In this document: positions 30,327 through 52,721 of the stretch, one piece after another | Numbering within the stretch: the stretch's first letter is position 1 | Layout of the letters: the number at the start of each line of letters is the position of its first letter | From: a virus | Direction: 5' to 3' (one strand) | Virus record (IMG/VR): IMGVR_UViG_3300027996_000011 | Span: 1-64,000 of that record | DNA: 64,000 nt | The notes under the pieces: generated by a model | Database searches by the model: none | What the model was told of the DNA's origin: nothing | What the model saw: only the letters and a program-made list of their open reading frames with translations | Made by a program: the position numbers and the translations under genes

Positions 30327-31562
30327 ATGAATAAAGCAAAATACAAAATCCTTGTACTACCAAGTGATAGAACGGGGGTGTCTAAATTTAGGTCTGTTGA
30401 CCCACACACTTACTTACAAGATATGTATCCAGAAGATTTTTGGGTGGATATTGTTTATGAACCACCTTATCATGATAATAATTGGTGGAAACAATATGAT
30501 TTAATCCATTATCATAGAAGTATTGGTCCTGACTACGACGCATCAAAAGCTGTAGCTAAAAGACTTACTGGTTGGGGAATACCTCACATTATGGATATTG
30601 ATGATTATTGGTCACCTACACCAGACCATCCAGCTCACCACTTAATTAAGAAAAACGGTATAGATAAAAAAATACAAGAAAATATAAGACTAGCTGGTTA
30701 TGTAACTACAACCACTAAAGTTTTTGCCGCAGAAATAGCTAAACAAAATAAGAATGTTGAAATTTTCCCGAATGCTATAGACCACGAGGAAAAACAATAC
30801 GTACCACAACCAACAAAATCAGACAAGGTTAGAATTGGCTGGTTGGGTGGTTCTTCACACATAGAAGATTTAAATATTTTACAAGGTATGGCCGGTAAAA
30901 TACAAAGTGCCAAAAAAGACGAATTCCAATTTGTTTTATGTGGTTATGACTTACGAGGTAGTATGACTATGATTGATGAAAAAACCGGTAAACAGACTCA
31001 ACGTCCTATTAAACCAGAAGAATCTGTATGGTACAAATATGAACAATTATTCACTGACAATTATAAAATAGTAAGTGGTGATTATAAAAAAGAATTATTA
31101 GGATTTCAGAAAAAAAATATTAGTGGTGATTTAAATTCGGTTTATAGAAGAGTTTGGACCAAACCAATTACAACCTACGCGTCTAATTATAACTATTTTG
31201 ACGTTAGTATTGCACCTCTTAAAGAACATATTTTTAATCAAGTAAAATCACAATTAAAAGTTATAGAAGCTGGATTCCATAAAAAAGCTTTAATAGCTCA
31301 AGATTATGGACCTTACACAGTAGATTGTATAAGTGCTTTAGATAAGGGCGGTATTATAAACTCAACTGGTAATGCTCTTTTGGTTGATTCACATAAAAAC
31401 CACAAACAGTGGTTTCAACACGTAAAAAGACTAATCGACAACCCTAATTTAGTTGAGGATTTGGGTGAAAGACTTCATGAAACAATAGCACCACACTATA
31501 ATTTAAAAACAGTGACTGAAAAAAGAGCTGAGTGGTATAAAGAATTAATAAGAAAATCATAA
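30327..31562 (+). CDS. GT-B (GT4-like) glycosyltransferase
   Basis: MDIDDYW, VRIGWLGGSSH, DVSIAPL...FNQVKSQLKVIEAG. Confidence 0.8.
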   Translation: MNKAKYKILVLPSDRTGVSKFRSVDPHTYLQDMYPEDFWVDIVYEPPYHDNNWWKQYDLIHYHRSIGPDYDASKAVAKRLTGWGIPHIMDIDDYWSPTPDHPAHHLIKKNGIDKKIQENIRLAGYVTTTTKVFAAEIAKQNKNVEIFPNAIDHEEKQYVPQPTKSDKVRIGWLGGSSHIEDLNILQGMAGKIQSAKKDEFQFVLCGYDLRGSMTMIDEKTGKQTQRPIKPEESVWYKYEQLFTDNYKIVSGDYKKELLGFQKKNISGDLNSVYRRVWTKPITTYASNYNYFDVSIAPLKEHIFNQVKSQLKVIEAGFHKKALIAQDYGPYTVDCISALDKGGIINSTGNALLVDSHKNHKQWFQHVKRLIDNPNLVEDLGERLHETIAPHYNLKTVTEKRAEWYKELIRKS

Positions 31563-31573
31563 AAAATTAAAAA

Positions 31574-32005
31574 ATGGCAGAAGTAGTAATTAATGACAAA
31601 ATAAAGACCCACGAAGAGGGCAAACACACTTATATTGGAAAATATAAGGGAAAAGATTTTAAGGCAAGTATGCAAGACATGAATGATGATAGAGAACTTG
31701 TTTATATGGAAGGTGAGGAAAATTTCACTGATGAAGATAAGGACGTTATTTTTGAACAATTGGACGACATGAGTTATGTGGACTCTATAGAAGAGGCTGG
31801 TAATGATAAAGTATATATAGAAAATAACTATGAAACTTGGTTTGCTTTTAAGTTTGAGGCTTATGGTTCTTATGGTGAGCATAAGTTTATAGTTGAGGAG
31901 TATAGTGATGAACACGGTGGTGATGCCACTTTTGTAGAAGGTGAGGATAAATTTAGTGAAGAAGAACAAGAACTAATTTACGAAGCCGTAAACGAATATA
32001 TGTAA
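31574..32005 (+). CDS. Very acidic protein with internal domain duplication
   Basis: The two halves end in EGEENFTDEDKDVIFEQL and EGEDKFSEEEQELIYEAV. Confidence 0.75.
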   Translation: MAEVVINDKIKTHEEGKHTYIGKYKGKDFKASMQDMNDDRELVYMEGEENFTDEDKDVIFEQLDDMSYVDSIEEAGNDKVYIENNYETWFAFKFEAYGSYGEHKFIVEEYSDEHGGDATFVEGEDKFSEEEQELIYEAVNEYM

Positions 32006-32006
32006 T

Positions 32007-32159
32007 ATGGAAGTGTTAATGTGTTTGTTTGTTGTTTTATTTATAATTTTTTTATGTAGATATGTTATGTCAGAGGGGTATAAACGGGAAAACGAAAAAC
32101 AATTTCTTCATAACTTAGAAAACTTTGATAAAAAAGAAAAAGAAAATGAAACAAAGTAA
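32007..32159 (+). CDS. Small single-pass membrane protein (50 aa)
   Basis: Not in the track. MEVLMCLFVVLFIIFLCRYVMSEGYKRENEKQFLHNLENFDKKEKENETK fills the gap between neighbours. Confidence 0.6.
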   Translation: MEVLMCLFVVLFIIFLCRYVMSEGYKRENEKQFLHNLENFDKKEKENETK

Positions 32160-32400
32160 ATTACCAGTTTGGTTTGATGGGGAAACTTATAATGAAGGTG
32201 GTAAAGTAAGAAATAGGTTTTCAGGGGAAGAATATGAATTAACACCAGAAGAATTGTCTATGTATGACTTTATAATGGGTAGCCAAATAGTTTTAGAAAT
32301 GGGAATGATAGACAACCCTAAAATGGTTGAAGACCTAAGAAAAGGACTAGAGTGGTTTAGGATAAATAATAGTAAGGCTTATATGGTCTTATTAGATTAA
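32146..32400 (+). CDS. Hypothetical protein
   Basis: Start reassigned to ATG 32146 (MKQSKLPVWF...). Confidence 0.7.
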   Translation: MKQSKLPVWFDGETYNEGGKVRNRFSGEEYELTPEELSMYDFIMGSQIVLEMGMIDNPKMVEDLRKGLEWFRINNSKAYMVLLD

Positions 32401-32425
32401 TTAATAAAAAATAAAAAATTAAAAA

Positions 32426-32605
32426 ATGGCAGTAGAGATTAATATTATGGAAAATGGACCTATCTTGGTCAAAGGAGAAACCACAGTAACAAAAGGTGGG
32501 GAAAAAGTAGTGGTAAGTGAAAATTACGCATTGTGTAGATGTGGGAAAAGTAAGTCCCAACCAATGTGTGATGGAACACATAAATTAGAAAATTTTAAAG
32601 GATAA
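32426..32605 (+). CDS. CDGSH-type [2Fe-2S] domain protein (59 aa)
   Basis: Not in the track. MAVEINIMENGPILVKG...YALCRCGKSKSQPMCDGTHK has the full C-x-C-x2-S-x3-P-x-CDG[ST]H motif. Confidence 0.9.
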   Translation: MAVEINIMENGPILVKGETTVTKGGEKVVVSENYALCRCGKSKSQPMCDGTHKLENFKG

Positions 32606-32609: not shown

Positions 32610-32840
32610 ATGTATTATCAAGCAATCGTGGCATTCGAAACTGGAGTTATGGATAACGAAGGAAATGCTAAAGTTAAAAAATTTAAATATGTTGTGGAAG
32701 CTGAGTCTCTTTTTGAGGTTAATAAAAGGTTAGCATCTTACTTATCTGAAGACACTAGAGATTCAGAAATAGTATCAATTGCTAAGGCTCCTTTTGAGGA
32801 TTTTTTACACCCGGAATTGACCCCTAAGTATTATGGATAA
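32610..32840 (+). CDS. DUF4494-like protein
   Basis: YYQAIVAFE...G..KVKK.KYVVEAESLFEV resembles the Bacteroidota DUF4494 half-domain (recognised from memory). Confidence 0.5.
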   Translation: MYYQAIVAFETGVMDNEGNAKVKKFKYVVEAESLFEVNKRLASYLSEDTRDSEIVSIAKAPFEDFLHPELTPKYYG

Positions 32841-33438
32841 AGAAAGTAACACTTGGAAAGAGATAATGTCAATGGCTAAAAATAATCCAAAACAAATGGA
32901 CGACACTTCACTATTAAAAAATTTGGGTTTGGATGGGGATACTTTAAAAAAAATCGAGGAGGACACTATTGAGTCCGCCAAAGAAGAGATTAAAGTTAAG
33001 GTTAGCTTTATGAATACCTCCACCAACGAAGACCCAAAACACAAATATATAGATGACAGTGGGATGGATTTACGTGCTAATTTAGAAAATCAGGTACATC
33101 TTAAACCAAGCGAAATAAAATTAATCCCAACAGGACTACACTTTGAATTACCTGAAAGTATGGAAATACAAGTAAGACCTAGAAGTGGTTTGGCAGCAAA
33201 AAATGGTATTACTGTTTTAAATACACCAGGAACTGTAGATAGGGGTTATAGTGGAGAAATAAAAGTTATTTTAATTAATTTGGGTAAGGACACTTTTATA
33301 GTAAATCATGGTGATAGAATTGCACAAGCTGTAATTTCACCAGTAATATCTGGTAGGTGGTGTACACTAACTAAAAAAAATAAACTAGCAAATACCAAAA
33401 GAAGTGATGGGGGATTTGGTTCAACAGGTATAAATTAA
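32833..33438 (+). CDS. dut: dUTPase (trimeric) with N-terminal extension
   Basis: SGMDL, IPTG, RPRSGLA, GTVDRGYSGE, GDRIAQ, RSDGGFGSTG. Confidence 0.95.
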   Translation: MDKESNTWKEIMSMAKNNPKQMDDTSLLKNLGLDGDTLKKIEEDTIESAKEEIKVKVSFMNTSTNEDPKHKYIDDSGMDLRANLENQVHLKPSEIKLIPTGLHFELPESMEIQVRPRSGLAAKNGITVLNTPGTVDRGYSGEIKVILINLGKDTFIVNHGDRIAQAVISPVISGRWCTLTKKNKLANTKRSDGGFGSTGIN

Positions 33439-33447: not shown

Positions 33448-34890
33448 ATGTCATTATCAGTAGTATTCAGTTCAAAAGAAATAAATAAAGATTTTATAGA
33501 GTTAATAAAAAAAACCTCTGGGGTACATAAAATAGAAATTTTACCATATGAAAATCCAGGAAAATATTCTTTAACTGATGTCTACAATATGGGTTTGAAG
33601 GACTCAAAAAATGACATAGTTTTATTTTGTCATGACGATATTAAGTTTGATACTAAAAATTGGGGTAGAAAGTTACTTAAACATTTTGAAAAAAGTGATT
33701 ATGGTATATTAGGTGTTGCTGGATGTAGGTATTTACCTGAATCTGGAAAATGGTGGGAAATACCATCAGAAATGATGGGTCAGGTTTACCACGAAAATGA
33801 TGGTAAAAGATGGTTATCAACATATAACCCTAAATTTGGTAATAATATATTACCCTCTGTTTTAGTTGATGGGTTATTTTTTGCTGTTAATAAGAATAAC
33901 TTATCTAGGGATTTTGACGAGTCCGTTAGGGGGTTCCATTTTTATGATTTAAACTTCTGTGTACAAAACTTCTTGTCTGGTGTTAAAATTGGTGTTATCT
34001 CTAATATTGACATTACCCACTTATCTATTGGTCAAACTAATCAAGAATGGGAAAGGAATAGGATTTTATTTAGTGAAAAGTATAGTGATAGTTTACCATT
34101 AATGGTTAGCTTAGTTATGCCCGAATTAAAACCTAAAAAAAGTAGTCCTTTAGTTTCTATTATAATTCCTGTTTATAATTATGGAAAAACTTTAGATAGG
34201 GCAATAACTTCAGTATTTTCCCAAACCTATAAAAATTTAGAAATTATTATAATAGATGATGGGTCTACAGATAATTTTACAAAGTTAAAACTTAAAAATT
34301 TAAAATTACCAAATACTAAAATCATATTTCAAGAAAATGGAGGCCCTTCTAAAGCTAGGAATGAAGGTATAAAAATTTCTAGTGGTGAATATATTTTACC
34401 TTTGGATTCTGATGATTTGATGCACCCTACTTACGTAGAACAGTGTATAAAAATTATAACTACAGATAAAAAATATAGCCCTATATATTGTGATACAGTA
34501 CATGAGGGACAAATGAGGGGTATAGAAAAAAGGCCTGAGTGGAGTAAAGAAAGATTAATTAATGGCCCTTTTATCGTTAATTGTTCTATGTTTAGTAGAG
34601 AAGCTTTTGATTCTATAAATGGTTATGACGAAGAACTAAAAGGTTGGGAGGATTACGACATGTGGTTACGAATGATGCAAGAAGGTTATGTGGGTAAAAG
34701 AATCCCAAACCCTTTATTTATTTATTTCCACCATGAAAGTGAAGGGACGGTATCCACTATAGCAAATCAAGATACTAAATCACTACACGAAAAAATATTA
34801 ATAAAAAACAAGTTAATAACTGACCCAGCTAAAACATCTATTTACACTCCTTTAACGAATAATAACACATCATTTAATTCATTTGTATAA
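33448..34890 (+). CDS. Two-domain GT-A glycosyltransferase (GT2-like + GT2)
   Basis: N-domain FCHDDI...FHFYD; C-domain VSIIIPVYN, IIDDGSTD, LPLDSDD, WEDYDMWLR. Confidence 0.9.
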   Translation: MSLSVVFSSKEINKDFIELIKKTSGVHKIEILPYENPGKYSLTDVYNMGLKDSKNDIVLFCHDDIKFDTKNWGRKLLKHFEKSDYGILGVAGCRYLPESGKWWEIPSEMMGQVYHENDGKRWLSTYNPKFGNNILPSVLVDGLFFAVNKNNLSRDFDESVRGFHFYDLNFCVQNFLSGVKIGVISNIDITHLSIGQTNQEWERNRILFSEKYSDSLPLMVSLVMPELKPKKSSPLVSIIIPVYNYGKTLDRAITSVFSQTYKNLEIIIIDDGSTDNFTKLKLKNLKLPNTKIIFQENGGPSKARNEGIKISSGEYILPLDSDDLMHPTYVEQCIKIITTDKKYSPIYCDTVHEGQMRGIEKRPEWSKERLINGPFIVNCSMFSREAFDSINGYDEELKGWEDYDMWLRMMQEGYVGKRIPNPLFIYFHHESEGTVSTIANQDTKSLHEKILIKNKLITDPAKTSIYTPLTNNNTSFNSFV

Positions 34891-34893
34891 AAT

Positions 34894-35589
34894 ATGGAAA
34901 CACTAACAGTATTATGTTCAAACTACAATTCAGATAGGTGGATTGATAACTACTTATTGTCACTTAACAACCAACTTCTTAAGGAGTTTACTATTATATT
35001 TGTTGACGCAAATTCTACTGACCACTCACTTAAAACAATTAAAAATTATAAATTTAGAGAAGGTATCACCAAAAAAATTATAGAAAACGATAAAAGAATT
35101 ACGATTTACGAAGCTTGGAATATGGCTATAGAGGCTAGTAAAAGTGAGTTTGTAATTAATTTTAATACTGATGATAGATTGTTTCCCGGTGCCTTACTAA
35201 CCCTATACCATTATATGGTACAAAATCCAAATGTTGACATTGCTTATGGTACTAGTTTAATTGTTGGTGATGAGGACCATAATAATATTAGAGGAATACA
35301 GAATTGGCCGGAACATAGCCACGAAATATTATTACAAAATTGTATTTGTGGACCATTTCCAATAGTAAAAAAATCAGTACTTGTAAATAATGGATTATTT
35401 AACCCAAAATATACTATATCAGGTGATTATGAAATGTGGTTAAGACTATCTAAAAGAAATTACAAATTTAAAAAAATAATTGACTTTTTAGGTTCATACT
35501 ACGACAACCCTAAAGGGGTTAGTTCCGATAAATCCACACTACAAGAACACATAAAACAAGATACTGAAATAAGAAATTTACATAGATGA
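34894..35589 (+). CDS. GT2 glycosyltransferase
   Basis: FVDANSTD, IYEAWN, NTDD, SGDYEMWLR. Confidence 0.85.
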   Translation: METLTVLCSNYNSDRWIDNYLLSLNNQLLKEFTIIFVDANSTDHSLKTIKNYKFREGITKKIIENDKRITIYEAWNMAIEASKSEFVINFNTDDRLFPGALLTLYHYMVQNPNVDIAYGTSLIVGDEDHNNIRGIQNWPEHSHEILLQNCICGPFPIVKKSVLVNNGLFNPKYTISGDYEMWLRLSKRNYKFKKIIDFLGSYYDNPKGVSSDKSTLQEHIKQDTEIRNLHR

Positions 35590-36272
35590 AAAAATTAATC
35601 TGTTATAGTTTGTGGGGTGATAACCCTAGATATACTGAAGGAGCTATTAGAAATGCTGAATTAGCTAAAGTAGTATATCCTGATTGGATTTGTAGGTTTT
35701 ATGTTGGTAATTGTGTTCCGATTGATATAATGAATAGATTAACTTCTTTTGATAATGTTGAAATAGTTGAGATGGGTGTTGTTGGTGATTGGACTGGTAT
35801 GTTTTGGCGTTTTACCGCTGCTAGTGATAAAGATGTTAGTATTATGTTATCTAGAGATACTGATAGTAGATTAACTTTACGGGAAAAGTATTCTGTGGAT
35901 GAGTGGTTAAATAGTAAGTTTAGTTTTCATATTATGAGAGACCACCCTTATCATTCTACCGAAATTTTAGGTGGTATGTGGGGTGTTAAAGGTGACATAT
36001 TAGACGGTATAAGTAATTTAATAACTGATTATGTAAAAGGTGATTTTTGGCAAGTAGACCAGAATTTTTTAAGAGAAAAAATTTGGCCTTTAGTTAAAGA
36101 AAATTCTTTTACTCACGATGAATTCTTTAGTCATGTTTTTGGTCCTGCTAACCCATATAAATTTAAAAGAGACCCCAAACACTTTATTGGTCAAGCTTAC
36201 GATGGTGATGATAAAATATTAGACGATAATGTATATTTTAATGATTACTTAGATAAGTCTAAAAAAATATAA
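35586..36272 (+). CDS. Putative GT-A-fold glycosyltransferase
   Basis: YSLWG...MFWRF...SRDTDSR...HIMRDHPYH..ILGGMWG...DQ.FL; DxD motif. Confidence 0.55.
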   Translation: MKKLICYSLWGDNPRYTEGAIRNAELAKVVYPDWICRFYVGNCVPIDIMNRLTSFDNVEIVEMGVVGDWTGMFWRFTAASDKDVSIMLSRDTDSRLTLREKYSVDEWLNSKFSFHIMRDHPYHSTEILGGMWGVKGDILDGISNLITDYVKGDFWQVDQNFLREKIWPLVKENSFTHDEFFSHVFGPANPYKFKRDPKHFIGQAYDGDDKILDDNVYFNDYLDKSKKI

Positions 36273-36276
36273 CAAT

Positions 36277-37104
36277 ATGAGAGTTTACGCAAATATAATG
36301 ACAAAAAATGAGGAGCTACTACTAAACGAACTACTCCCAATATGGAATAACTACCCAGTAGAAAAATTTATCTTTTATAACGATAATTCTACAGACGGTA
36401 GCGTTAACCTTATAAAATCCTACTTAGGTGATAGAGCTGTTATTCTTAATGATAATTTAGAAGAATTTAATGAATCACACAATAGGTCTAGAATGTTAGA
36501 ATATAGTAGAGAAGATGGGGCTACTCATGTTATAGCTTTTGATTGTGACGAATTACTCTCAAATAATACTATAACTAATTTTAATGAGGTTATTAATATG
36601 TATGAAACTAAAGACGTTTATCTTTACTGGTATAATGTTGTAAATAACACTTTAAGTGAGACTAGGAATGACCCTTCTTACATACATAACTATCGTAGTT
36701 TTATATTACCACTTAAAAATACTGGTAAATTTAACTTAGCTTTATGGAAATACCACACACCTAGAACACCACAAATCAACCTACCTAAAAGCACAACTAA
36801 AGATTATGGTGTTATACACCTACAATCAATTAATACAAAATTTTACGCCTTAAAACAATTATGGTATAAACACTATGAGTATGTTAAATATAACCACCCG
36901 GTAACATTTATTAATCAAAGATATGACCCAGTAATTAATAATTTAAATTTTATGTCTGTACAAACACCAGAAGAAATTCTTGGTGATATAAAATTTGACC
37001 ACACGGTATATGATAAGATGTGTGAACATAAAGGATATTTAAAATTTATAAAAGAAAATTATAATAGTGAGTTAGTTACTTTTGGTTCTGAGTTTTTAGA
37101 TTAA
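36277..37104 (+). CDS. GT2-like glycosyltransferase
   Basis: KNEE, YNDNSTDGS, AFDCDE. Confidence 0.75.
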   Translation: MRVYANIMTKNEELLLNELLPIWNNYPVEKFIFYNDNSTDGSVNLIKSYLGDRAVILNDNLEEFNESHNRSRMLEYSREDGATHVIAFDCDELLSNNTITNFNEVINMYETKDVYLYWYNVVNNTLSETRNDPSYIHNYRSFILPLKNTGKFNLALWKYHTPRTPQINLPKSTTKDYGVIHLQSINTKFYALKQLWYKHYEYVKYNHPVTFINQRYDPVINNLNFMSVQTPEEILGDIKFDHTVYDKMCEHKGYLKFIKENYNSELVTFGSEFLD

Positions 37105-37142
37105 AATATTTACGAATATAAAAATAATATGTATATTTTAGT

Positions 37143-37769
37143 ATGGACCATCACGATAAACTAAACTTCGAAGAAATCACTAAATTTATTAAAGATGATA
37201 GTGTTGTTGTAGATGTTGGGGCACATATAGGTGGTTATTGTGATTTTTTTTTAGAGAAGTTGGGTAAGTCAGGTAAAATATACGCTTTAGAAATACACCC
37301 AAAGAACTACGCTAGACTGTATAATAAATATAAATTATTAAATAATTTAGTTTTGATTCATAAAGCTGCTTCTAATAATGACGGGGTTGAGGATGTGTAT
37401 CATAACGGTAGTCCCGGACATACCCAAACTACTAATATATTAGGTAAAGACACTAATGAAGTAAGTGTGCCTAGAATTGGTTCGATACAGAGTATTAAAT
37501 TGGACACACTATTACATAATGAAAATAGTATAGATTTAGTAAAGATTGATGTTGAGGGTGCTGAGATAAAAGTTTTAGAAGGATTATCTAAAATACATAA
37601 TAGAATTAATCATTTACTTATTGAATGTCATTTTGATAAGGATTGGGGCAGGATAAAAGACCTTTTACTTAATGAGTATAATTTTTTGTGTTACGATTTA
37701 AGTGATAAAAACAATATAGATATTACCACTGACAAACGAGCTTATCAGTGTTTATGTAAAAAAAAATAA
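37143..37769 (+). CDS. FkbM-family methyltransferase
   Basis: VDVGAHIG, KIDVEGAE. Confidence 0.9.
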   Translation: MDHHDKLNFEEITKFIKDDSVVVDVGAHIGGYCDFFLEKLGKSGKIYALEIHPKNYARLYNKYKLLNNLVLIHKAASNNDGVEDVYHNGSPGHTQTTNILGKDTNEVSVPRIGSIQSIKLDTLLHNENSIDLVKIDVEGAEIKVLEGLSKIHNRINHLLIECHFDKDWGRIKDLLLNEYNFLCYDLSDKNNIDITTDKRAYQCLCKKK

Positions 37770-37775
37770 TTTAAT

Positions 37776-39333: not shown

Positions 39334-39334
39334 C

Positions 39335-43366: not shown

Positions 43367-43373
43367 TAATACT

Positions 43374-44665: not shown

Positions 44666-45740
44666 GCCTTGGATAGACGATAATGAATTAAAACACTTAA
44701 AGAGAGTGGTGGATTCTACCTATGTTGTGGAACACGAACTAACTAAGGAATTTGAGTCTGTAATTAAGGAGTATACTGGTAGTAAACACGCTGTAGCCAT
44801 GACTAATGGTACTATGGCTTTATATTCTTGCCTATTAGCTTTAGGACTTAAACCTGGTGACGAAGTAATTGTACCTAATCTGACTTTTATAGCTAGTTCA
44901 AACGCTGTTTTAATGGCTAATGGGGTACCTGTATTATGTGAGGTAACTAAAGACACTTTGTGTTTGGACCCTGTTGAATTAGAGAAATGCATAACTAAGA
45001 AAACTAAGATAATAATGCCAGTACACCTATATGGTCAAAGTGCTGATATGAAATCAATTACAGAAATAGCTAAAAAATATAATTTAAAAATATTAGAGGA
45101 TGCGGCACAGGGTGTTGGTGTTTTTTCTGGTGGTAAACATGTTGGTACTTTTGGGGATTGCGGGATACTTTCTTTTTATGGTAATAAAACAATTACTTGT
45201 GGTGAAGGGGGTGTTATTTTAACAGACGATGATGAAATAGCTAAAGAATGTTATAGGTTAAAAAATCACGGTAGGGATAGAAAGGGTATTTTTGAACACG
45301 AGCATATAGGTTTTAATTTTTGTTTTACTGAAATGCAAGCCGCTATTGGGATATCTCAAATGGAAAAATTAGATAGAATAATAGATAGAAAAAATACTTG
45401 TCACGAAAAATACAAAAGTGGTTTAGTGGGTATTGGGGACCTATCTTTCTTTGAGTTTACTGAGTCTACCCGACCTGTTCACTGGTTTACATCGATATTA
45501 ACTAGTTACAAAATAGAACTTTCTGATTATCTTTTAGAAAAAGGGATACAAAGTAGGTTTTTCTTTTATCCCCTTAATTTACAACCTTGTTATAAAAACG
45601 TTTTAGATACTAGTGGGGACTTTAATATTAGTAGTGAAATGTATGATAAAGGTTTGTCGTTACCATCCAGTTATAACTTAACAGATGAGGAACAAAATTA
45701 TGTTATTAAAACAATTAAAGAATTTTTTAAAAAGAAATGA
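44640..45740 (+). CDS. DegT-family PLP aminotransferase, GDP-perosamine synthase-like
   Basis: EDAAQ and SFYGNKTITCGEGG (catalytic Lys present). Start reassigned to ATG 44640. Confidence 0.8.
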   Translation: MRDFIPQIEPWIDDNELKHLKRVVDSTYVVEHELTKEFESVIKEYTGSKHAVAMTNGTMALYSCLLALGLKPGDEVIVPNLTFIASSNAVLMANGVPVLCEVTKDTLCLDPVELEKCITKKTKIIMPVHLYGQSADMKSITEIAKKYNLKILEDAAQGVGVFSGGKHVGTFGDCGILSFYGNKTITCGEGGVILTDDDEIAKECYRLKNHGRDRKGIFEHEHIGFNFCFTEMQAAIGISQMEKLDRIIDRKNTCHEKYKSGLVGIGDLSFFEFTESTRPVHWFTSILTSYKIELSDYLLEKGIQSRFFFYPLNLQPCYKNVLDTSGDFNISSEMYDKGLSLPSSYNLTDEEQNYVIKTIKEFFKKK

Positions 45741-46891
45741 ATATACCATTAGTCAAAAATACAATAAATAAAGAAGATATAGATAAATTAATAGAGTGGT
45801 TAAAAACGTACCCTAGATTAACTAAAGGCGATTTAACAATAGAGTTTGAACAGTTATGGTCTAAATTTATGGGTGTAAAGCATTCTATTTTTGTTAATTC
45901 TGGTTCTTCTGCTAATCTAGTTATGGTTTATGCGTTAATAGAATCAGGTATTTTAAAAATAGGTGATGATATTATAATACCTTCACTATCCTGGTCTACA
46001 AGTTTAGCACCAGCTATACAGTTTGGACTTAACCCAGTTTTATGTGATTGTAATAAGGAAGATTTATCGGTAGATTTAGAGCATCTGGTGTCTTTAATTA
46101 AAGATAGACAACCTAAATGTATGATGATTGTACCTATATTAGGTCTAGTACCACAAATGGATAAAATAATGGATATCTGTGAAAAATATAACGTTGTTTT
46201 AATTGAGGATGCTTGTGAGTCTTTAGGTTCTAAATTTAATGATAAAAAATTAGGTTCTTTTGGGTTAATGTCGACTTTTTCAACTTATTTTGGTCATCAC
46301 ATATCTACTATCGAAGGTGGTATGGTTTGTACTAATGATGATGATTTTGCTAACTTATTAAAATCACTTAGAAGTCATGGTTGGGCTAGAGACATGGATA
46401 CAAATGCTCAAGAAAAATTACGTAAAGAATATAATGTGGATGATTTTAATACACAATATACTTTTTACCACACTGGATTTAATTTACGGTCCACCGACCT
46501 TCAGGCTTTTCTTGGTATAGGTCAATTAGAAAAATTACCTATGGTGGTAAAAAATAGGTGTGATAATTTTAAACTATATTATGAATTATTGGATGACTCT
46601 TTTTGGAAACCAAAGCTAAGAGACACTGATTACATTTCAAATTTCGCTTTTCCAATAATACACGAAAAAAGAAATGAGTTAGTAAAACTATTAAATGATA
46701 ATAATATAGAAAACAGACCATTACTAGCTGGTTCTTTAGGTAAACAACCCTATTGGTATAAAAAATATGGTATAAATAAGTTACCTAATGTAGATGATAT
46801 AGATACCTTTGGATTATATCTACCTAATAATCACGAAATGTCAGAAGAAGAAATAAAAAAAGTTTGTAACGTCTTAAACTCCATAGTATAA
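45737..46891 (+). CDS. colD: GDP-4-keto-6-deoxy-D-mannose 3-dehydratase (ColD-like)
   Basis: NSGSSANL, EDACES, STYFGHHISTIEGG (His replaces the catalytic Lys), SHGW.R. No E1-type Fe-S Cys motif. Confidence 0.75.
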   Translation: MNIPLVKNTINKEDIDKLIEWLKTYPRLTKGDLTIEFEQLWSKFMGVKHSIFVNSGSSANLVMVYALIESGILKIGDDIIIPSLSWSTSLAPAIQFGLNPVLCDCNKEDLSVDLEHLVSLIKDRQPKCMMIVPILGLVPQMDKIMDICEKYNVVLIEDACESLGSKFNDKKLGSFGLMSTFSTYFGHHISTIEGGMVCTNDDDFANLLKSLRSHGWARDMDTNAQEKLRKEYNVDDFNTQYTFYHTGFNLRSTDLQAFLGIGQLEKLPMVVKNRCDNFKLYYELLDDSFWKPKLRDTDYISNFAFPIIHEKRNELVKLLNDNNIENRPLLAGSLGKQPYWYKKYGINKLPNVDDIDTFGLYLPNNHEMSEEEIKKVCNVLNSIV

Positions 46892-47334
46892 TGAGTGAGG
46901 CAAAACCAATACCCCAAGACTTATATAATGAAATTTTGAGTACCATGCCTATAATTTGTGTAGATGGGATTATACAAAAAGGGGATGAGACACTTTTATT
47001 ATTAAGGGATAATGAACCTGAAAAAGGTAAATGGTGGTTTCCTGGTGGTCGTGTTTTAAAAGGTGAAAGATTGGAAGATGCTATTATTAGAAAGATAAAA
47101 GAGGAGACTGGTTTACTTTGTGAAGTTTTAGAAATGTTAGACATCACCCAAACATCATTTACAACAGGACCTAATGATATACCAGTACACACAATTAATG
47201 TCTGCTTTACTTTAAAAATAAAAAGTGGTGTCGTATCTCTAGATAGTGAACATAATGAGTATGGTTGGTTTACAGAAGCTCCAGAGACCGCACATTCAGT
47301 AATAAAATATATTTTTAAAAAATTAAAAAAATGA
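46891..47334 (+). CDS. gmm: GDP-mannose mannosyl hydrolase (Nudix)
   Basis: P..CVD, R..EP.KG.W..PGGRV.KGE, EETG, EH..Y.WF. Confidence 0.75.
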   Translation: MSEAKPIPQDLYNEILSTMPIICVDGIIQKGDETLLLLRDNEPEKGKWWFPGGRVLKGERLEDAIIRKIKEETGLLCEVLEMLDITQTSFTTGPNDIPVHTINVCFTLKIKSGVVSLDSEHNEYGWFTEAPETAHSVIKYIFKKLKK

Positions 47335-48305
47335 AAACAGCACTAATAACAGGTATTAACGGTCAGGATGGTTCTTATCTTGCTGAATTTTTATTGGATA
47401 AGGGTTATGAGGTTTGGGGTATACTAAAACGTAATTCTGTGGCCGAAAATCAAACAGCTAGAATACCAGATAATATTTTTAAAGAGTTGAATTTAGTTTA
47501 TGGTGATTTAACTGACCTTTCGTCTATAATAAGTGTAATTCAAAAATGTGTACCTGATGAAATTTATAATCTAGCTGCACAATCTCATGTTAGGATTAGT
47601 TTTGACCAACCAATATATACTTCTAATGTAACTGGTCTAGGTGTTTTAAATTTACTAGAAGCTGTTAGATTAACTGACCCTAAAATTAAAGTATACCAAG
47701 CCAGTTCTTCAGAAATGTTTGGTAATAGTATTGATGAGGATGGGTACCAACGAGAGACCACACCACTTAACCCTGTTTCACCATATGGTTGTGCTAAGGT
47801 TTTTGGTTACAACATATGTAGAAATTATAGAAACTCGTATAATATGTTCATTTCTAATGGTATTTTATTTAACCACGAATCACCTAGAAGAGGAATTAAT
47901 TTTGTAACAAATAAAGTCGCGAAAGAGGCTGTAAAAATAAAATTGGGGTTGTCTGATGAATTAAAATTAGGTAATTTAGATGCTAGTCGGGATTGGGGTC
48001 ACGCTAAAGATTACGTTGAAGCGATGTGGTTAATGTTACAACAGGATAAACCTGGTGATTATGTTTGTTCGACTGGTGTTTCTCATAGTGTAAAAGACTT
48101 GGTAGAGTACGTGTTCAACTCATTAGGGTTGGATTGGTCCAAATATGTATCTGTGGATGAAAAATATCTTAGACCCGAAGAACTAAAACACTTAAAAGGT
48201 GATTGTTCTAAAATTAAAAAGGATTTGGGTTGGTCACCTAATTATAACTTCGAGTCTATGATGGACGAGATGATTGAGTATTGGGTAGAATATTATGAAA
48301 AATAA
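47331..48305 (+). CDS. gmd: GDP-mannose 4,6-dehydratase
   Basis: ALITGINGQDGSYLAE, YNLAAQSHV, QASSSE, FNHESPRRG, RDWGHA. Confidence 0.95.
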   Translation: MKTALITGINGQDGSYLAEFLLDKGYEVWGILKRNSVAENQTARIPDNIFKELNLVYGDLTDLSSIISVIQKCVPDEIYNLAAQSHVRISFDQPIYTSNVTGLGVLNLLEAVRLTDPKIKVYQASSSEMFGNSIDEDGYQRETTPLNPVSPYGCAKVFGYNICRNYRNSYNMFISNGILFNHESPRRGINFVTNKVAKEAVKIKLGLSDELKLGNLDASRDWGHAKDYVEAMWLMLQQDKPGDYVCSTGVSHSVKDLVEYVFNSLGLDWSKYVSVDEKYLRPEELKHLKGDCSKIKKDLGWSPNYNFESMMDEMIEYWVEYYEK

Positions 48306-49209
48306 TTTAGTTACTTTAGTTACTGGTGGTAGTGGGTTAGTTGGTTCTTCAATAACCGGTAACACCCTTAAGGTTGGTAGTAGTTTTGATTTACGAGATA
48401 CATCTGTAACCAATAAACTATTTTCGGACCTACAACCAGATAATGTTATACATTGTGCTGGTAGGGTAGGTGGTTTAGGTGGTAATATGAATATGAAGGG
48501 AGAATTTTTCTACGATAACATAATGATTAATACTAATGTTATAGAATCATGTAGGAAATACGGTGTAAAAAAATTAGTTTGTTTTTTATCTACTTGTGTG
48601 TTCCCTAATGATGTTGAGTATCCACTGACTGAAAAGAAAATTCATTTGGGTCCACCACACACCTCAAACGATGCTTACTCATATGCAAAACGTATGGCTG
48701 ATATACAAATTCGTGCATACAGAGAACAATACGGTCTTAATTACGTATCAGTTATACCAACTAACATATATGGACCTAACGATAATTTTGATTTGGTTAA
48801 TGGGCATGTTGTGCCTTCATTAATTCATAAATGTTATTTGGCTAAAAAAAATAACACACCTTTTAAAATATGGGGTAGTGGTAAACCTTTAAGAGAATTT
48901 ATTTTTTCTAAAGATGTAGGAAAATTAACAGAATGGGTTTTAAAAAACTATGAAGAGGAAGAACCTATTATATTTTCTACCTCACAAGAAGTTTCAATAA
49001 GAGATGTGGTTGGTTTGATTGTTAAACACATGTCTTTTACTGGTGACGTAGTTTGGGAGGATGATAAACCTGATGGACAATTTAGAAAACCTAGTGATAA
49101 TAGTAAATTATTATCTTACTTACCGGATTTTAAATTTACTAGTTTAGATAAAGGTTTAAAAGAAACTATAGATTGGTTTATAGATAATTATGAAAATTGT
49201 AGAAAATAA
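48295..49209 (+). CDS. fcl: GDP-L-fucose/colitose synthase (Fcl/ColC)
   Basis: TGGSGLVGS, AGRVGG...N, LSTCVFP, YSYAKR, PTNIYGPNDNF, WGSGKPLREF. Confidence 0.9.
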   Translation: MKNNLVTLVTGGSGLVGSSITGNTLKVGSSFDLRDTSVTNKLFSDLQPDNVIHCAGRVGGLGGNMNMKGEFFYDNIMINTNVIESCRKYGVKKLVCFLSTCVFPNDVEYPLTEKKIHLGPPHTSNDAYSYAKRMADIQIRAYREQYGLNYVSVIPTNIYGPNDNFDLVNGHVVPSLIHKCYLAKKNNTPFKIWGSGKPLREFIFSKDVGKLTEWVLKNYEEEEPIIFSTSQEVSIRDVVGLIVKHMSFTGDVVWEDDKPDGQFRKPSDNSKLLSYLPDFKFTSLDKGLKETIDWFIDNYENCRK

Positions 49210-49227
49210 AAATTTAAATAAATAATA

Positions 49228-49965
49228 ATGGGAAGAAGAAGTAAAAAATTAAGTAGAGATGAACAACAAGAAGTAGAAGAGTGGATTTACCAAAATAACA
49301 CTGAAGAAATTAGAATGACTGACACTATGACCATAAATGTTAAGTGTAAAACAGAAAATCAAAAATCCTTAGTAAATTCTATAAAAGAAAAAGAAGTAAC
49401 TATATGTTCTGGTCCAGCTGGAACGGGTAAAACATTTTTAGCTTGTGCCGAGGCTTTAAAATTAATTAAAAGATATGCAAAATATAAAAAGATTGTAATT
49501 GTAAAGTCAGTTACCACCCTAAAGAATGAAGAAATTGGTTTTTTAAAAGGTAATTTAAGGGAGAAGATGGAACCGTTTATGTTTTCTTTTGTTCATAATT
49601 TTGAGAAGATTGTGGGACAAGCTATAACATCAAGACTTAGGGAGTTAAAAACTATAGAAGAAATGCCTATCGCGTATATGAGGGGTATTAATCTAGATAA
49701 GTCAATTATAATTATAGATGAGGCTCAAAATATATCTCAAGAAAATATGAGGACAATACTAACTAGGTTAGGTAAGGATTCTAAAATGATATTCTTAGGT
49801 GATGAAAGACAACAAGATTCTAAAGGTGGTAATGGATTAACTTTTTTAATGGACCATTTTTCACACATTGATGAAATTGGGTGTGTCCAATTTAACAAAT
49901 CTGATGTGGTTAGAAATCCATTAATAGCAAAAATAGAAAGAGTTTTTGATTCTTTACAAAAATAA
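49228..49965 (+). CDS. phoH: PhoH-family ATPase
   Basis: GPAGTGKT, IGFLKG, PIAYMRG, IIDEAQN, LTRLG, DVVRNPL. Confidence 0.93.
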   Translation: MGRRSKKLSRDEQQEVEEWIYQNNTEEIRMTDTMTINVKCKTENQKSLVNSIKEKEVTICSGPAGTGKTFLACAEALKLIKRYAKYKKIVIVKSVTTLKNEEIGFLKGNLREKMEPFMFSFVHNFEKIVGQAITSRLRELKTIEEMPIAYMRGINLDKSIIIIDEAQNISQENMRTILTRLGKDSKMIFLGDERQQDSKGGNGLTFLMDHFSHIDEIGCVQFNKSDVVRNPLIAKIERVFDSLQK

Positions 49966-49975
49966 GATTTATAAT
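49946..49975 (+). promoter_or_regulatory. Possible sigma70-like promoter
   Basis: TTGATT-N18-TATAAT, 11 nt before ATG 49987. Confidence 0.4.
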
Positions 49976-49986
49976 TAGGTTTAAAT

Positions 49987-50565
49987 ATGAAAATTAGTGT
50001 AAATATAAATGGTGTACTTAGAAACGTACTTTTAAAATTTCAACAGGTTTATGAGAAATACGAAGATAGGGATGTTAAGTCCGATGTCATCACACCAAAC
50101 CTTATGGAATACACTCATTTTGACGATGAAGAAAAACTATACAATTTTTTATATCAGGAAGCACCCATGGAGATATTTGGACAAGCTAAAGAAACATTCA
50201 TTAATGTTATTTCTCACTTAGTAGAACTTTACAAAAATATGCCATCTGATTATAAATTAAGGGTTGTAAGTGATGATTTAGGTAAAGCTAAACCCGCTAC
50301 ATTATGGTTTTTAGCAAAATATGGTTTAGTTTGTGATGAAATAGTATTTTACAACACAAAGACCTTAGAAAACATTTGGGACAATACTGATGTTTTTATA
50401 ACAAGTGATGTTGATGTTATTGAGTCTAAGCCAAAAAATAAAAAATTAATAGTTGTTGACCAATCGTATAATAATTCATATGATTGTGACTTACGAATAA
50501 CTAATTTAAAAGAATTAGATACATTAAATATAGAAGATATATGGCGATTAAAAGAGATACATTAA
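49987..50565 (+). CDS. Degenerate HAD 5'(3')-nucleotidase-like protein
   Basis: MKISVNINGVLRN corresponds to DxDGVL with both Asp replaced by Asn; ATLWFL and YN motifs. Confidence 0.55.
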   Translation: MKISVNINGVLRNVLLKFQQVYEKYEDRDVKSDVITPNLMEYTHFDDEEKLYNFLYQEAPMEIFGQAKETFINVISHLVELYKNMPSDYKLRVVSDDLGKAKPATLWFLAKYGLVCDEIVFYNTKTLENIWDNTDVFITSDVDVIESKPKNKKLIVVDQSYNNSYDCDLRITNLKELDTLNIEDIWRLKEIH

Positions 50566-50843
50566 CTAATTTAAAGTTAAATGTTGGTAATGAACGTCTT
50601 TACTTAGACGTTGATGAGATGCTGGGTAATGTGGAAATATTTACCCGTGACAAAGAAGGTAGAGATATCATTGAATTGAACTTACCAAAATTTGAATTTT
50701 TTAAAATGATGTTAGATACGGTTTGTAATACTGTAGAAGATGTAGATGATAATTTGGGTGTGGTGTCCTTAAATAAATTACCTGTTTCGTCTAAATTGGC
50801 GATTAACACCTTAATAAAATATAAAATAATAAAAAAATTATAA
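50541..50843 (+). CDS. Hypothetical protein
   Basis: 100-aa ORF in the operon. Confidence 0.65.
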   Translation: MAIKRDTLTNLKLNVGNERLYLDVDEMLGNVEIFTRDKEGRDIIELNLPKFEFFKMMLDTVCNTVEDVDDNLGVVSLNKLPVSSKLAINTLIKYKIIKKL

Positions 50844-50849
50844 TTAAAT

Positions 50850-51911
50850 ATGGAACAACAATTAACTCAATTAGAGAACGGTTTAAAAAAAATTAAAAAC
50901 AAAGAGAGTATGATTTATTTCTTAACTCAAGACACTAATGGGACTGCATCTGCTTCTGTTGCAAATACCTATCAGTATGTAAAATACCTAAGAGAAGCTG
51001 GTTACAAAGCAGAAATCTTGTATGAAAAGAAAGACTATAAAGGTGTGGGTGAATGGTTAGGTTCAGAATACACTGAATTACCACATTGTACTATAGAGGA
51101 TGGTGAATTAAAAGTTGGTCCAGCAGATGTTGTTGTGGTACCAGAATTGTACGGCCATGTATTAGAACAAATAACAAATATGCCTTGTACCAAAATAATG
51201 TTTAGTCAAGCTTATGATTACATTTTAGAAACTTTAAATCCTGGTTTTGGTTGGTCTAATTACGGTGTTACTAAATGTATAACAACATCTGATGCCCAAA
51301 AAGAAGAAATTAAAAAATTATTTCCAACTGTAGAATCAACAGTAATCACACCCTCAATCCCAAGTTATTTTAAACCAAGTGAAAAACCTAAAAAGCCAAT
51401 GATTGCTGTACATACTAGAGACCAAAGGGATACTATGAAGATTATTAAATCTTTTTACCTACAAAACCCACAATTTAAATGGATTACATTTAGAGATATG
51501 AGAGGTTTATCTAGAGAAGAATTTGCTAAAAATTTAGGTGAAGCATGTGCATCAATATGGGTGGATAGAATATCTAGTTTTGGTACTTTCCCATTGGAGT
51601 CTATGATGTGTAATACACCTTGTATCGGAACGCTTCCTATTATGAAACCTGAATGGTTAACTGAAGAGAATGGTATATGGGTTTTTGACGAATCTAAGGT
51701 TGTTGAGGTTATAGCTGGATTCTTAAAGAATTGGTTGGAGGATTCCGTACCAGTAAATTTATATGAAAAAATGAAAAAAACTACCGAAATGATATCGGAA
51801 GATAAAGAATCTAAGGAAGTGGTGAAATTCTTTGACACTTTATTTGGTGAAAAATCTGTGGAGTTTGATTCCGCAATAAATAAACTTACACCTGTAAGTG
51901 AAAACTCTTAA
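50850..51911 (+). CDS. GT-B (GT4-like) glycosyltransferase
   Basis: DVVVVPE, SSFGTFPLESMMC.TPCIG (ExxxxE-like acceptor region). Confidence 0.75.
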   Translation: MEQQLTQLENGLKKIKNKESMIYFLTQDTNGTASASVANTYQYVKYLREAGYKAEILYEKKDYKGVGEWLGSEYTELPHCTIEDGELKVGPADVVVVPELYGHVLEQITNMPCTKIMFSQAYDYILETLNPGFGWSNYGVTKCITTSDAQKEEIKKLFPTVESTVITPSIPSYFKPSEKPKKPMIAVHTRDQRDTMKIIKSFYLQNPQFKWITFRDMRGLSREEFAKNLGEACASIWVDRISSFGTFPLESMMCNTPCIGTLPIMKPEWLTEENGIWVFDESKVVEVIAGFLKNWLEDSVPVNLYEKMKKTTEMISEDKESKEVVKFFDTLFGEKSVEFDSAINKLTPVSENS

Positions 51912-51923
51912 AAAAATATTAAA

Positions 51924-52721
51924 ATGAATAGTAAAGACATTACAATTATACTTCCGGTACACGATGTATCTGACGATTTTAACAACTGGTTTCCTAAATC
52001 TCTTAAAAGTTTAGAACAATCACAAGCAAAACCAGGTAAACTATTAATAGTTTGTGCTGAAAATAACTCCATAAAAGAATACATGAGCTCTTTAGAAAAT
52101 ACTACTGGTATCGATACTGAAATTGTGTACAATGATGGTGACACAACATATTGTGGACAAATTAATTTAGGTGTGTCCAAATGTAAGACTGAATACATTT
52201 CAGTATTAGAGTACGATGATGAATATTCTAATATTTGGTTTAAACAGTTTGATTTGTATGTGCCACATTATAAAGACGTAGATATATTTTTACCTTTGGT
52301 AGTAGATACTGACCAAGTAGGTCAATTTTTAGGTTTTACTAATGAAGCTTTATGGGCTATGGGATTCTCAGAAGAAATTGGATTTCTAGATAATAATACC
52401 TTATTAAAATATCAAAATTTCCAAGTTAGTGGTATGATTATGAGAAAGGATAAATTTGAGGAGATTGGTGGTTTAAAAGCTTCTATGAAACTTACTTTTA
52501 ATTACGAATTTTTATTACGTGCTACTTACAATGACACTACTATTATGACAATACCTAAAATAGGTTATAAGCATGTAAACCAAAGAGACAAGTCCTTATT
52601 TTGGAATTATAAATTTAAAGACGATTTAAAAATTGGCCAGGACGAAGCTAAGTTCTGGGTGGAAACAGCTAAAAAAGAATATTTTTTCACTAAAGATAGA
52701 CAGGTTGAATTTGAGGGGTAA
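51924..52721 (+). CDS. GT2-like glycosyltransferase
   Basis: ITIILPVH, INLGV, LEYDDEY, YEFLLR. Confidence 0.75.
   Translation: MNSKDITIILPVHDVSDDFNNWFPKSLKSLEQSQAKPGKLLIVCAENNSIKEYMSSLENTTGIDTEIVYNDGDTTYCGQINLGVSKCKTEYISVLEYDDEYSNIWFKQFDLYVPHYKDVDIFLPLVVDTDQVGQFLGFTNEALWAMGFSEEIGFLDNNTLLKYQNFQVSGMIMRKDKFEEIGGLKASMKLTFNYEFLLRATYNDTTIMTIPKIGYKHVNQRDKSLFWNYKFKDDLKIGQDEAKFWVETAKKEYFFTKDRQVEFEG

Follow-up and report, generated by a model that had tools for sequence, protein, structure and literature searches.

The 64,000 nucleotides examined here (the window) are the first 64 kb of a 95,727-bp viral contig, the IMG/VR record IMGVR_UViG_3300027996_000011, and between 30.3 and 52.7 kb they carry a block of glycosyltransferase (GT) and sugar-nucleotide genes. 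We found that this block consists of a lineage-wide core, which includes four GT genes (designated, like all genes below, by their first coordinate: 30327, 33448, 50850 and 51924), around a cassette (34894-49209) that varies between relatives and can be empty. Furthermore, Wzx/Wzy, ABC-2 exporter and undecaprenyl-priming genes were found neither in the contig nor in two complete relatives. The explanation that we prefer, by analogy with chloroviruses, Megavirinae and mycobacteriophages, and to which we give close to an even chance, is that the glycan would be built in the cytoplasm on the phage's own virion proteins.

A conserved transferase core around a variable cassette

The preliminary description of the window had proposed that the region from 34.9 to 49.2 kb is a swappable cassette and that the GTs flanking it may be core initiating enzymes, and synteny in two sets of relatives bore out the cassette and the core position of the GTs. 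The close comparison used five relatives, four of them bracketed by the same two anchor genes; the contig of the fifth begins inside the block and leaves its left core genes out of view. Every relative reaching the position had the small late genes at 27598-30276, the GT-B gene 30327 (four of four, at 52-76% identity), the dUTPase gene and the N-terminal domain of 33448 on the left, and the PhoH gene, the HAD-like gene, GT-B gene 50850, GT2 gene 51924, the sigma-like gene and the genes 3' of it on the right. Almost nothing between 34894 and 49209 was common to the five (34894 has no ortholog in any of them), and the spacing from anchor to anchor ranged from 18.6 to 30.1 kb. The wide comparison covered 47 relatives in 10-kb flanks around their 50850 homologue, and here the right-hand core was almost invariant in content (PhoH and GT2 gene 51924 in 46 relatives each, the HAD-like and sigma-like genes in all 47, and the two genes that follow in 47 and 46), with core proteins only about 40-60% identical.

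Measured from the two-domain GT to PhoH, the cassette was empty (40-101 bp) in four of these relatives, 1.4-7.4 kb long in 15 and longer than the visible 8.3 kb in 27, and its overall length varies from 0 to about 20 kb; that some relatives lack the cassette altogether is new here. The 385 visible cassette genes fell into 193 families, 126 of them singletons, and formed 33 architectures among 42 loci. The recurrent families were all sugar-related: GDP-mannose 4,6-dehydratase (GMD; 21 loci in the clustering, counting the window's own copy, and a neighbor of PhoH in 20 of the 47 relatives according to BLAST), the Fcl-like reductase (17 loci in the clustering; 19 of the 47 by presence count), GT11 fucosyltransferase (9), DegT enzymes, GNAT acetyltransferase, GT2, cupin isomerases, RmlD-like reductase and GT17; the relatives' enzymes included GT10 as well as GT11 fucosyltransferases. 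Only one of the 47 relatives, probably L105 as judged by its 82% core GT-B identity, had close (72-91% identical) copies of distinctive genes of this cassette, among them those for a GT32, a 235-aa protein and a PIG-L deacetylase. The left border of the cassette runs through the two-domain gene 33448, the N-terminal domain being the more conserved and the C-terminal domain the more variable, and homologues of about 500 aa are kept even in the cassette-less relatives. The median pairwise identity of GMD was 72.5%, compared to 48.5% for the core GT (r = 0.28), which is compatible with horizontal exchange but is not decisive because GMD evolves slowly. The complete relative G001 has a short cassette of about 6 kb (L091 13461-19491, minus strand), quite unlike that of the window, with a PhyH-type dioxygenase, a GH130-like protein, a hexapeptide acyltransferase, WbqC and a truncated DegT.

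Membrane functions and the acceptor of the glycan

As the window is part of a fragment that CheckV rates as about 30% complete, a gene missing from the window is by itself poor evidence that the phage lacks it. We therefore rely on the relatives of the contig (G000 is the 95.7-kb contig itself), of which G001 (296 kb) and G007 (308.6 kb, with terminal repeats) are rated 100% complete; of G006 and G008, one is rated 66% and the other 76%. The preliminary description had recognized no Wzx/Wzy/ABC transporter and no undecaprenyl-priming transferase, and this held for the contig and the two complete relatives; membrane priming or flippase genes were likewise not found elsewhere in these nearest complete genomes. 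Priming transferases of the WecA type (PF00953) and WbaP type (PF02397) had no match in G001, G007, G006 or G008, and PF02397, the only one of the two used on the contig, had none there. The Wzx flippase (PF01943) and the Wzy/WaaL-type ligase (PF04932) were absent from G001, G006, G007 and G008, and the ABC2_membrane family (PF01061; Wzm/KpsM-type) was absent from these four and from G000, the partner ATPase not being looked for. Controls were positive in 10-12 of 14 genomes for the priming transferases and in 10-14 of 14 over all export and priming searches. These explicit negative searches in two complete genomes are new here.

According to a Kyte-Doolittle hydropathy scan, none of the real genes of the block encodes a membrane helix, and the contig as a whole encodes no multipass membrane protein. 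The same kind of scan in G001, the one relative to which it was applied, yielded an ABC_membrane_3 protein and a rhomboid as the multipass proteins named by Pfam. It also picked up a Band_7/SPFH protein whose N terminus has two hydrophobic segments, as well as three more multi-segment candidates (116-361 aa) with no informative Pfam match. The ABC_membrane_3 protein is unrelated and lies about 130 kb away. As an observation apart, G001 carries unusual phage cargo in that ThyA is directly followed by the ABC_membrane_3 protein, with the rhomboid protease and the SPFH/Band-7 protein elsewhere (L085 3586-5469; L089 5137-5880; L084 14840-15784).

These observations can be ordered into an argument about the acceptor. 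Because the core GTs are kept across relatives that are only 40-60% identical, including the four with an empty cassette, the acceptor should be conserved as well, and the simplest conserved acceptor is one encoded by the phage. Hypervariability of the outer genes suggests that the product is recognized outside the cell. A conserved acceptor, recognition outside the cell and the lack of export machinery in complete genomes are together best fitted by glycosylation of virion proteins. Under this model, the four conserved soluble GT genes with their five GT domains (30327, 33448, 50850 and 51924) would lay a conserved base, and the cassette 34894-49209 would supply a strain-specific outer part through its own GTs, including the weak candidate 42530, possibly capped by methylated 6-deoxy or amino sugars. 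The likeliest acceptors would be exposed virion proteins such as tail sheath decoration domains, fiber-like proteins or head-decoration proteins.

The core enzymes offer some clues to what they act on. Both 30327 and 50850 are confidently predicted to fold as GT-B enzymes (predicted local distance difference test, pLDDT, about 90), although Pfam recognized nothing in 30327 and gave one sub-cut-off Glycos_transf_1 match for 50850. The profile of 50850 matched AmGGT (PDB 8XSG) at E 2.9e-16, the next match being at 1.3e-9, and the Foldseek template modeling (TM) scores were 0.74-0.76, making 50850 a specific homologue of AmGGT/Agt, a relationship that is new here. AmGGT is the Actinobacillus minor homologue of Agt, which extends the N-linked glucose that NGT places on proteins in a cytoplasmic system (PMC12159676). 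Aligned by HMMER, 50850 retains the second Glu of the EX7E motif and has an Arg opposite R203, and it does not retain the first Glu of the motif or K171. A tblastn search with 50850 against GenBank phages found no match. The C-terminal domain of 33448 matched the chondroitin polymerase K4CP (2Z87) at E 7e-36, making synthase-like elongation without Wzy conceivable for this protein, and the matches of 33448 in GenBank phages were all partial, none covering 80%.

We also compared the frequency of the motif [ST][GA]xT in contig proteins with composition-matched shuffles. It was observed 16 times in the tail sheath (12279-15773) where 3.7 were expected, 7 times against 0.5 in a 343-aa protein with a weak tail-protein match (21146-22177), 9 times against 1.5 in a 728-aa protein just 5' of the block (25358-27544), and 5 times against 0.8 in a 501-aa protein downstream (57823-59328). 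This excess of 4- to 14-fold in those four proteins was shared by few others of at least 150 aa; similar z-scores in the sigma-like protein and in one probable shadow open reading frame (ORF) came from only one or two occurrences. We count the excess as an indirect sign in favor of virion proteins.

The fold of 30327 brings in a different product, since its top Foldseek matches were MshA, GlgM, ManT, BshA and PglA. The GTs could make a cytoplasmic product other than the virion, such as a free oligo- or polysaccharide, a glycosylated small molecule, or glycosylated non-structural phage or host proteins, with mycobacterial polymethylated polysaccharides and the GlcNAc conjugates of mycothiol and bacillithiol as analogues; we regard this as improbable. 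MshA, BshA, GlgM and the methylmannose-polysaccharide enzyme ManT act on soluble acceptors, FkbM methyltransferases and a PIG-L/LmbE deacetylase accompany the GTs, and such a product would need no export. However, the modeled neighbors of 30327 are generic GT4 members, the PIG-L gene belongs to the cassette and not to the core, and strain-level hypervariability is hard to explain for an internal metabolite that is never seen outside the cell.

DNA as the acceptor appears to us very improbable. In this case the GTs would attach mono- to oligosaccharides to a modified base, in the style of T-even phages or of the MT/5mYOX/GT clusters. The phage is T4-related, its GTs are placed among nucleotide-metabolism genes (dUTPase, the HAD/NT5C-like gene and, in relatives, a PolB-type exonuclease), and phage GTs akin to lipopolysaccharide (LPS) and teichoic-acid enzymes decorate 5-hydroxymethylcytosine with up to trisaccharides (bioRxiv 10.1101/2023.12.21.572611). 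However, the earlier remark that no hydroxymethyl-pyrimidine synthase is recognizable in the window was borne out, and no source of a hydroxymethylated base was found in the contig or the complete relatives, in searches that did not include DNA C5-methyltransferase. The contig has no thymidylate synthase and each complete relative has a single locus, which in G001 is a true ThyA (268 bits, cut-off 108); a Tet_JBP search gave no match, its control genomes being silent too. Additionally, the dUTPase of the contig is of the standard dut type, the list of the 50 best PDB or viral fold matches names no T4 alpha- or beta-GT, and no known DNA glycan comes near a set of eleven GTs with rare GDP-sugars and O-methylation. 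Separately, the sole thymidylate synthase gene of G007 (48722-50707, minus strand) is interrupted, as about 835 bp separate Pfam positions 1-90 from positions 75-234 within one 679-aa frame and the last 40 positions lie in another frame, which suggests an intein or intron-like insertion.

The time at which the block is expressed bears on the acceptor as well. The sequence TATTTATA occurs in sense orientation 9-57 nt 5' of 22 genes, many of them structural and the sheath gene included, and looks like the late promoter element of the phage. On the plus strand near the block it was found only at 27576, 32038 and 53431, the last directly 3' of the sigma-like gene, so the glycan block is bracketed by operons that this motif heads (27576 and 53431), which we count in favor of virion proteins. 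The preliminary description had also placed internal promoters at 37109-37139 and 43322-43350, and we have dropped this claim, as promoter and terminator scans were at chance level. Sigma-70-like matches numbered 115 versus 109 ± 10 and 76 versus 97 ± 10 in real and shuffled sequence, with an E. coli-type consensus that may not be the host's; the site at 43322-43350 is a real 11/12 match, and that at 37109-37139 was not among the 60 strongest of the 115.

Several observations weigh against virion proteins as the acceptor. No copy of TATTTATA lies inside 33448-52721, and since the GTs are packed in strings with dUTPase, PhoH and the sigma-like gene, they look like an early or middle unit. The identity of 50850 to AmGGT is remote (about 20%), with two of the four tested donor-site residues identical, and AmGGT itself prefers free oligosaccharides, elongating free alpha-glucans and mannosides (PMC12159676), which also speaks for a non-virion cytoplasmic product. 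GT41/NGT (PF13844) was absent from G000, G001, G002, G004 and G005, leaving no identifiable protein-initiating enzyme; NxS/T is not enriched in any contig protein; and the [ST][GA]xT excess could be purely structural. The virion-protein acceptor is, moreover, deduced from genes. Lastly, lipid-linked O-antigen and capsule are ordinarily assembled by soluble enzymes of the GT2, GT4 and GT32 families, for which the host could prime, flip and ligate.

This last point leads to the main rival explanation, host-envelope remodeling, which we consider unlikely but by no means negligible. The phage GTs would build an O-antigen, capsule or O-glycan unit on host undecaprenyl phosphate, and the altered surface of the infected cell would block superinfection or trap competitors. 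Nucleotide-sugar synthesis genes stand together with several GTs here as they do in Wzx/Wzy loci, O-antigen loci use the same kinds of enzymes and sugars (colitose, perosamine, an RfbT-like methyltransferase and, among the relatives, GT11/GT10 fucosyltransferases), their GTs are commonly free of membrane helices, and loci for surface antigens are typically hypervariable while fixed in position. The placement of the GTs with dUTPase, PhoH and the sigma-like gene suggests expression before the late genes, and modification of the host O-chain is also the published interpretation of comparable islands in cyanophages and pelagimyophages (PMC7824862, PMC7029224), which counts against our own. However, with no primer, flippase, polymerase, ligase or ABC-2 exporter in two complete relatives, every membrane step would have to be borrowed; retention of the four core GT genes in a lineage that is both marine and freshwater would require one conserved host acceptor across many hosts; and the core is kept even by relatives with an empty cassette. 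We retain glycosylation of virion proteins as our preferred explanation.

Gene content and sugar chemistry of the block

The preliminary description had called the block a 22-kb glycan factory with about 11 GT-like genes. Pfam, AlphaFold2 with Foldseek, and the protein Atlas upheld the gene content, with 11 GT genes carrying 12 GT domains, but not the contiguity, as dUTPase, PhoH, the HAD-like gene and small ORFs are interleaved. A fold search in BFVD gave generic viral GT1/GT4 proteins only. Two of the GT genes encode GT-B proteins (30327 and 50850), five are GT2-like (33448, with two GT-A domains, 34894, 36277, 38683 and 51924), two are GT32-like (39335 and 43374), 42530 is a weak member of the GT47 clan and 35586 is a probable GT-A; these are accompanied by two FkbM methyltransferases (37143 and 40650) and a weak third methyltransferase (40093). 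All genes from 27598 to 59660 are on the plus strand. Genes inside 33448-53425 overlap or are separated by at most 38 nt, and wider gaps (50, 119 and 432 nt) occur upstream, between 30277 and 32832. The GC content is about 31% across the contig, and the composition of the block is the same as that of its surroundings.

On the left, the core comprises the 411-aa GT4-like GT-B protein 30327 (30327-31562; no Pfam match, AlphaFold2 pLDDT 89.9, Foldseek), a dUTPase that is unrelated to glycans (32833-33438; Pfam E 5e-24, NCBIfam dut 170 bits with a cut-off of 103) and the two-domain GT-A protein 33448 (33448-34890), with Glyco_tranf_2_5 at residues 16-210 and Glycos_transf_2 at residues 237-346. 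Between the first two lies a second, small variable spot (31574-32600). Here the phage has ORFs of low conservation over about 1 kb (of 143 and 91 aa, and a hydrophobic one of 50 aa at 32007-32159) together with the copy of TATTTATA at 32038, where relatives G001, G004 and G005 have a PolB-type 3'-5' exonuclease gene and G002 has nothing. We considered whether 31.5-32.9 kb is a decayed copy of this exonuclease and rejected the idea, as no remnant was found. Just 5' of the dUTPase, a conserved 75-aa ORF (32610-32834, plus strand) shares 76% identity with a 76-aa ORF in the corresponding position of G002; it matches PHROG 19572, of unknown function, weakly and escapes ORF lists with an 80-aa floor.

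The cassette opens with a GT2 (34894-35589; Glycos_transf_2 E 3e-16), followed by the probable GT-A protein of 228 aa (35586-36272), which has no Pfam match and was assigned by the Atlas (a score of 0.99 with 'hexosyltransferase' clusters made up of viruses only, and a TM of 0.92 with a viral GT2 cluster), and a GT2-like Glyco_tranf_2_4 protein (36277-37104; 29.7 bits, cut-off 27.5). The next gene encodes an RfbT-like methyltransferase of the FkbM family (37143-37769; Methyltransf_21 E 3e-18, TIGR01444 85 bits), which scored 27.6 bits, near the cut-off, with the V_cholerae_RfbT model. After it come a nucleotide-sugar epimerase/dehydratase of the short-chain dehydrogenase/reductase type (37776-38690; Epimerase E 2e-58, top NCBIfam model GalE, below its cut-off), a GT2 (38683-39333; Glycos_transf_2, 30.7 bits), a GT32-like Caps_synth protein (39335-40090; 24.7 bits, cut-off 24.5), the possible methyltransferase 40093 (40093-40653; Methyltransf_31 E 0.0015, below cut-off) and the second FkbM-family methyltransferase (40650-41231; Methyltransf_21 E 5e-13). 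The middle of the cassette is completed by a PIG-L/LmbE-type de-N-acetylase (41231-41833; 30.4 bits, cut-off 28.2), the 235-aa protein (41830-42537), which has no Pfam match and only virus-only unnamed clusters in the Atlas, the possible GT47-clan transferase (42530-43366; RXYLT1_C E 1.7e-4, below cut-off), a GT32 with the DXD sugar-binding region (43374-44282; Gly_transf_sug, 43 bits) and a DUF6165 protein (44279-44665; PF19662, E 6e-12).

The remaining cassette genes, 44604-49209, form a GDP-sugar module. It begins with an aminotransferase that resembles GDP-perosamine synthase (44604-45740), whose closest PDB entries are the Caulobacter perosamine synthetases 3DR7/3BN1 (E 9e-73) and which retains the Schiff-base Lys. 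The next enzyme is a ColD-like GDP-4-keto-6-deoxymannose 3-dehydratase (45737-46891), closest to E. coli ColD/WbdK (PDB 2GMS, E 4e-61) and with His-His at the position of the aminotransferase Lys that binds pyridoxal phosphate, as in ColD. An exact copy of this ColD-like protein is present on a 248-kb contig, which may be a fuller assembly of the same phage. The module continues with a NUDIX hydrolase that resembles GDP-mannose mannosyl hydrolase (46891-47334; NUDIX E 1e-16, NF011963 55.6 bits, below cut-off), GMD (47331-48305; TIGR01472 412 bits, cut-off 415) and, as the last cassette gene, an Fcl/ColC-like GDP-4-keto-6-deoxyhexose epimerase/reductase (48295-49209; GDPFucSynFcl 228 bits, cut-off 500). 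Judged by these homologies, the module should branch from host GDP-mannose into two arms, one leading to GDP-L-colitose and the other to GDP-perosamine, an assignment that is new here. Since the sole candidate for the ColC step is an Fcl-like protein that scores below its cut-off, the first arm may instead yield GDP-fucose if 48295 is a true Fcl. Neither ManB nor a ManC-type transferase is encoded by the contig, and no perosamine N-acyltransferase was recognized in it. RfbT methylates the terminal perosamine of the V. cholerae O1 antigen, and a methylated perosamine cap made by the RfbT-like protein 37143 is a reasonable prediction.

The right border of the cassette is a core PhoH-like ATPase (49228-49965; PhoH E 4e-59), followed by the core HAD/NT5C-like protein (49987-50565; NT5C E 6e-4, below cut-off), the 353-aa AmGGT/Agt-like GT-B protein 50850 (50850-51911; 8XSG profile and Foldseek as above, AlphaFold2 pLDDT 89.7), the core GT2 (51924-52721; Glyco_tranf_2_2, 29.2 bits) and the core sigma-like gene (52721-53425). 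It had been stated that the terminal GT2 is coupled through TAATG to a late sigma gene. The coupling is real, as the stop codon of the GT2 and the next start overlap at 52718-52723, but the naming of the downstream gene as a sigma factor drew only weak matches (Sigma70_r2 E 0.004, below cut-off, with similarly weak matches in 12 of 20 relatives). A profile built from 20 relatives matched SigA in the PDB at E 0.04 and T4 gp55 at E 0.32, the latter in a colinear alignment, and a PHROGs search with the gene and its neighbors gave nothing.

Lineage, comparison with known systems and significance

The contig is a piece of an uncultured, widespread, T4-related aquatic jumbo myovirus of about 300 kb. 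Its products include a helicase, a DNA polymerase of family B, a tail sheath of 1,164 aa and a T4-type major capsid protein. IMG/VR contains at least 598 relatives of the capsid protein, one of them on the 296-kb record rated 100% complete, and the lineage was sampled from marine and freshwater sites. The closest cultured phages, Microcystis phage Mel-JY01 and Flavobacterium phage immuto, reach only 42-43% capsid identity, and megablast of the whole block against GenBank phages gave no match. Metagenomes contain more than 7,900 clusters at 90% identity of the 30327 GT-B family and 1,947 of the 50850 family. As side observations, the match of the major capsid protein (60180-61976, minus strand) to the T4-type head family is confined to residues 334-572, leaving about 330 N-terminal residues unexplained, and relative G008, a 229-kb member of the lineage, is classed as a provirus by IMG/VR, which is unexpected for a T4-related jumbo myovirus.

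This kind of locus is already known from the literature on cyanophages and pelagimyophages. The 'LPS / cell-wall' islands of cyanophages (P-SSM2) and the host-recognition-cluster islands of pelagimyophages similarly combine many soluble GTs with nucleoside diphosphate-sugar dehydratases, epimerases and aminotransferases, lack exporters, vary between close relatives and have had their function deduced from gene content (PMC7824862, PMC7029224). In contrast, the island described here belongs to a different lineage (best cultured capsid match 43%), occupies a fixed locus, and its four conserved GT genes flank a cassette that some relatives lack. To our knowledge, the glycosylation target of the marine-phage 'LPS-like' islands has never been tested, and the published readings are drawn from gene content.

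The fibril clusters of Megavirinae and the capsid glycosylation of chloroviruses resemble the block in their soluble GTs, in their own nucleotide-sugar pathways for bacterial-type rare sugars (PMC10117803, PMC9614988), in cytoplasmic assembly without export machinery and in clade-specific cluster content, the Megavirinae clusters ranging from 6 to 33 genes (PMC10117803). Two features of autonomous virion glycosylation, namely virus-encoded soluble GTs without export machinery and cluster content that varies by clade, were found here. However, those viruses have eukaryotic hosts and chemically proven virion glycans, whereas this phage is a bacterial virus known from its genes. We put somewhat short of an even chance on the view that the locus encodes an autonomous, exporter-free system of protein glycosylation, in which a base laid by the five-domain core carries an exchangeable outer glycan (colitose, perosamine, O-methyl), as a bacterial-virus counterpart of giant-virus fibril glycosylation. 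In the mycobacteriophages Che8, Corndog and Myrna, phage GTs are described as glycosylating capsid and tail proteins in the bacterial cytoplasm (Freeman et al. 2023, in PMC11256854); these systems have 2-4 GTs and no comparable rare-sugar cassette, and the likeness is one of description.

Other comparisons concern individual parts of the block. Of the Actinobacillus NGT/Agt pair and AmGGT, the Agt-type homologue (50850) is present here but the NGT partner is not found. Counterparts of O-antigen sugar pathways are the GMD, the ColD-like enzyme with His for Lys and the Fcl/ColC-like reductase (E. coli O55/O111 GDP-colitose pathway), GMD with the Per-like aminotransferase that keeps its Lys (Caulobacter GDP-perosamine synthase) and the FkbM/RfbT-like methyltransferase (V. 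cholerae O1 RfbT), although here they occur in a phage in which no Wzx/Wzy or ABC exporter was found. The MT/5mYOX/GT clusters likewise contain phage GTs akin to LPS and teichoic-acid enzymes and are widespread in metaviromes (bioRxiv 10.1101/2023.12.21.572611); in contrast, the present locus is far larger, and neither a dioxygenase nor a hydroxymethylase turned up as a partner in this phage or in the complete relatives, within the same limits on the Tet_JBP control and the DNA C5-methyltransferase as above.

Among the core enzymes, 30327 has homologues in cultured phages, being related to phi92 gp164 and gp163 (27% identity over 88% of the length, E 4e-24). Phage phi92 and the related E. coli K-12 phages arall and alia have a run of four soluble GTs, gp163-gp166, among non-structural genes, but no sugar-synthesis cassette, and these proteins are annotated only as glycosyltransferase or conserved hypothetical; we know of no assigned function for them. 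For gp163, gp165 and gp166, no resemblance to any of the other core GTs was seen. This link of 30327 to laboratory E. coli phages is new here and provides a laboratory entry point into the system.

The lineage is very abundant, with about 2,000 and more than 7,900 metagenome clusters in its two core GT-B families, and it constitutes a clean natural experiment, in that the core stays constant, the cassette is anything from absent to about 20 kb long, and no export genes were found in the complete genomes. If the virion is the target, marine phage particles would carry strain-specific glycan coats, and their adsorption, decay, grazing and immune-like recognition would be affected.

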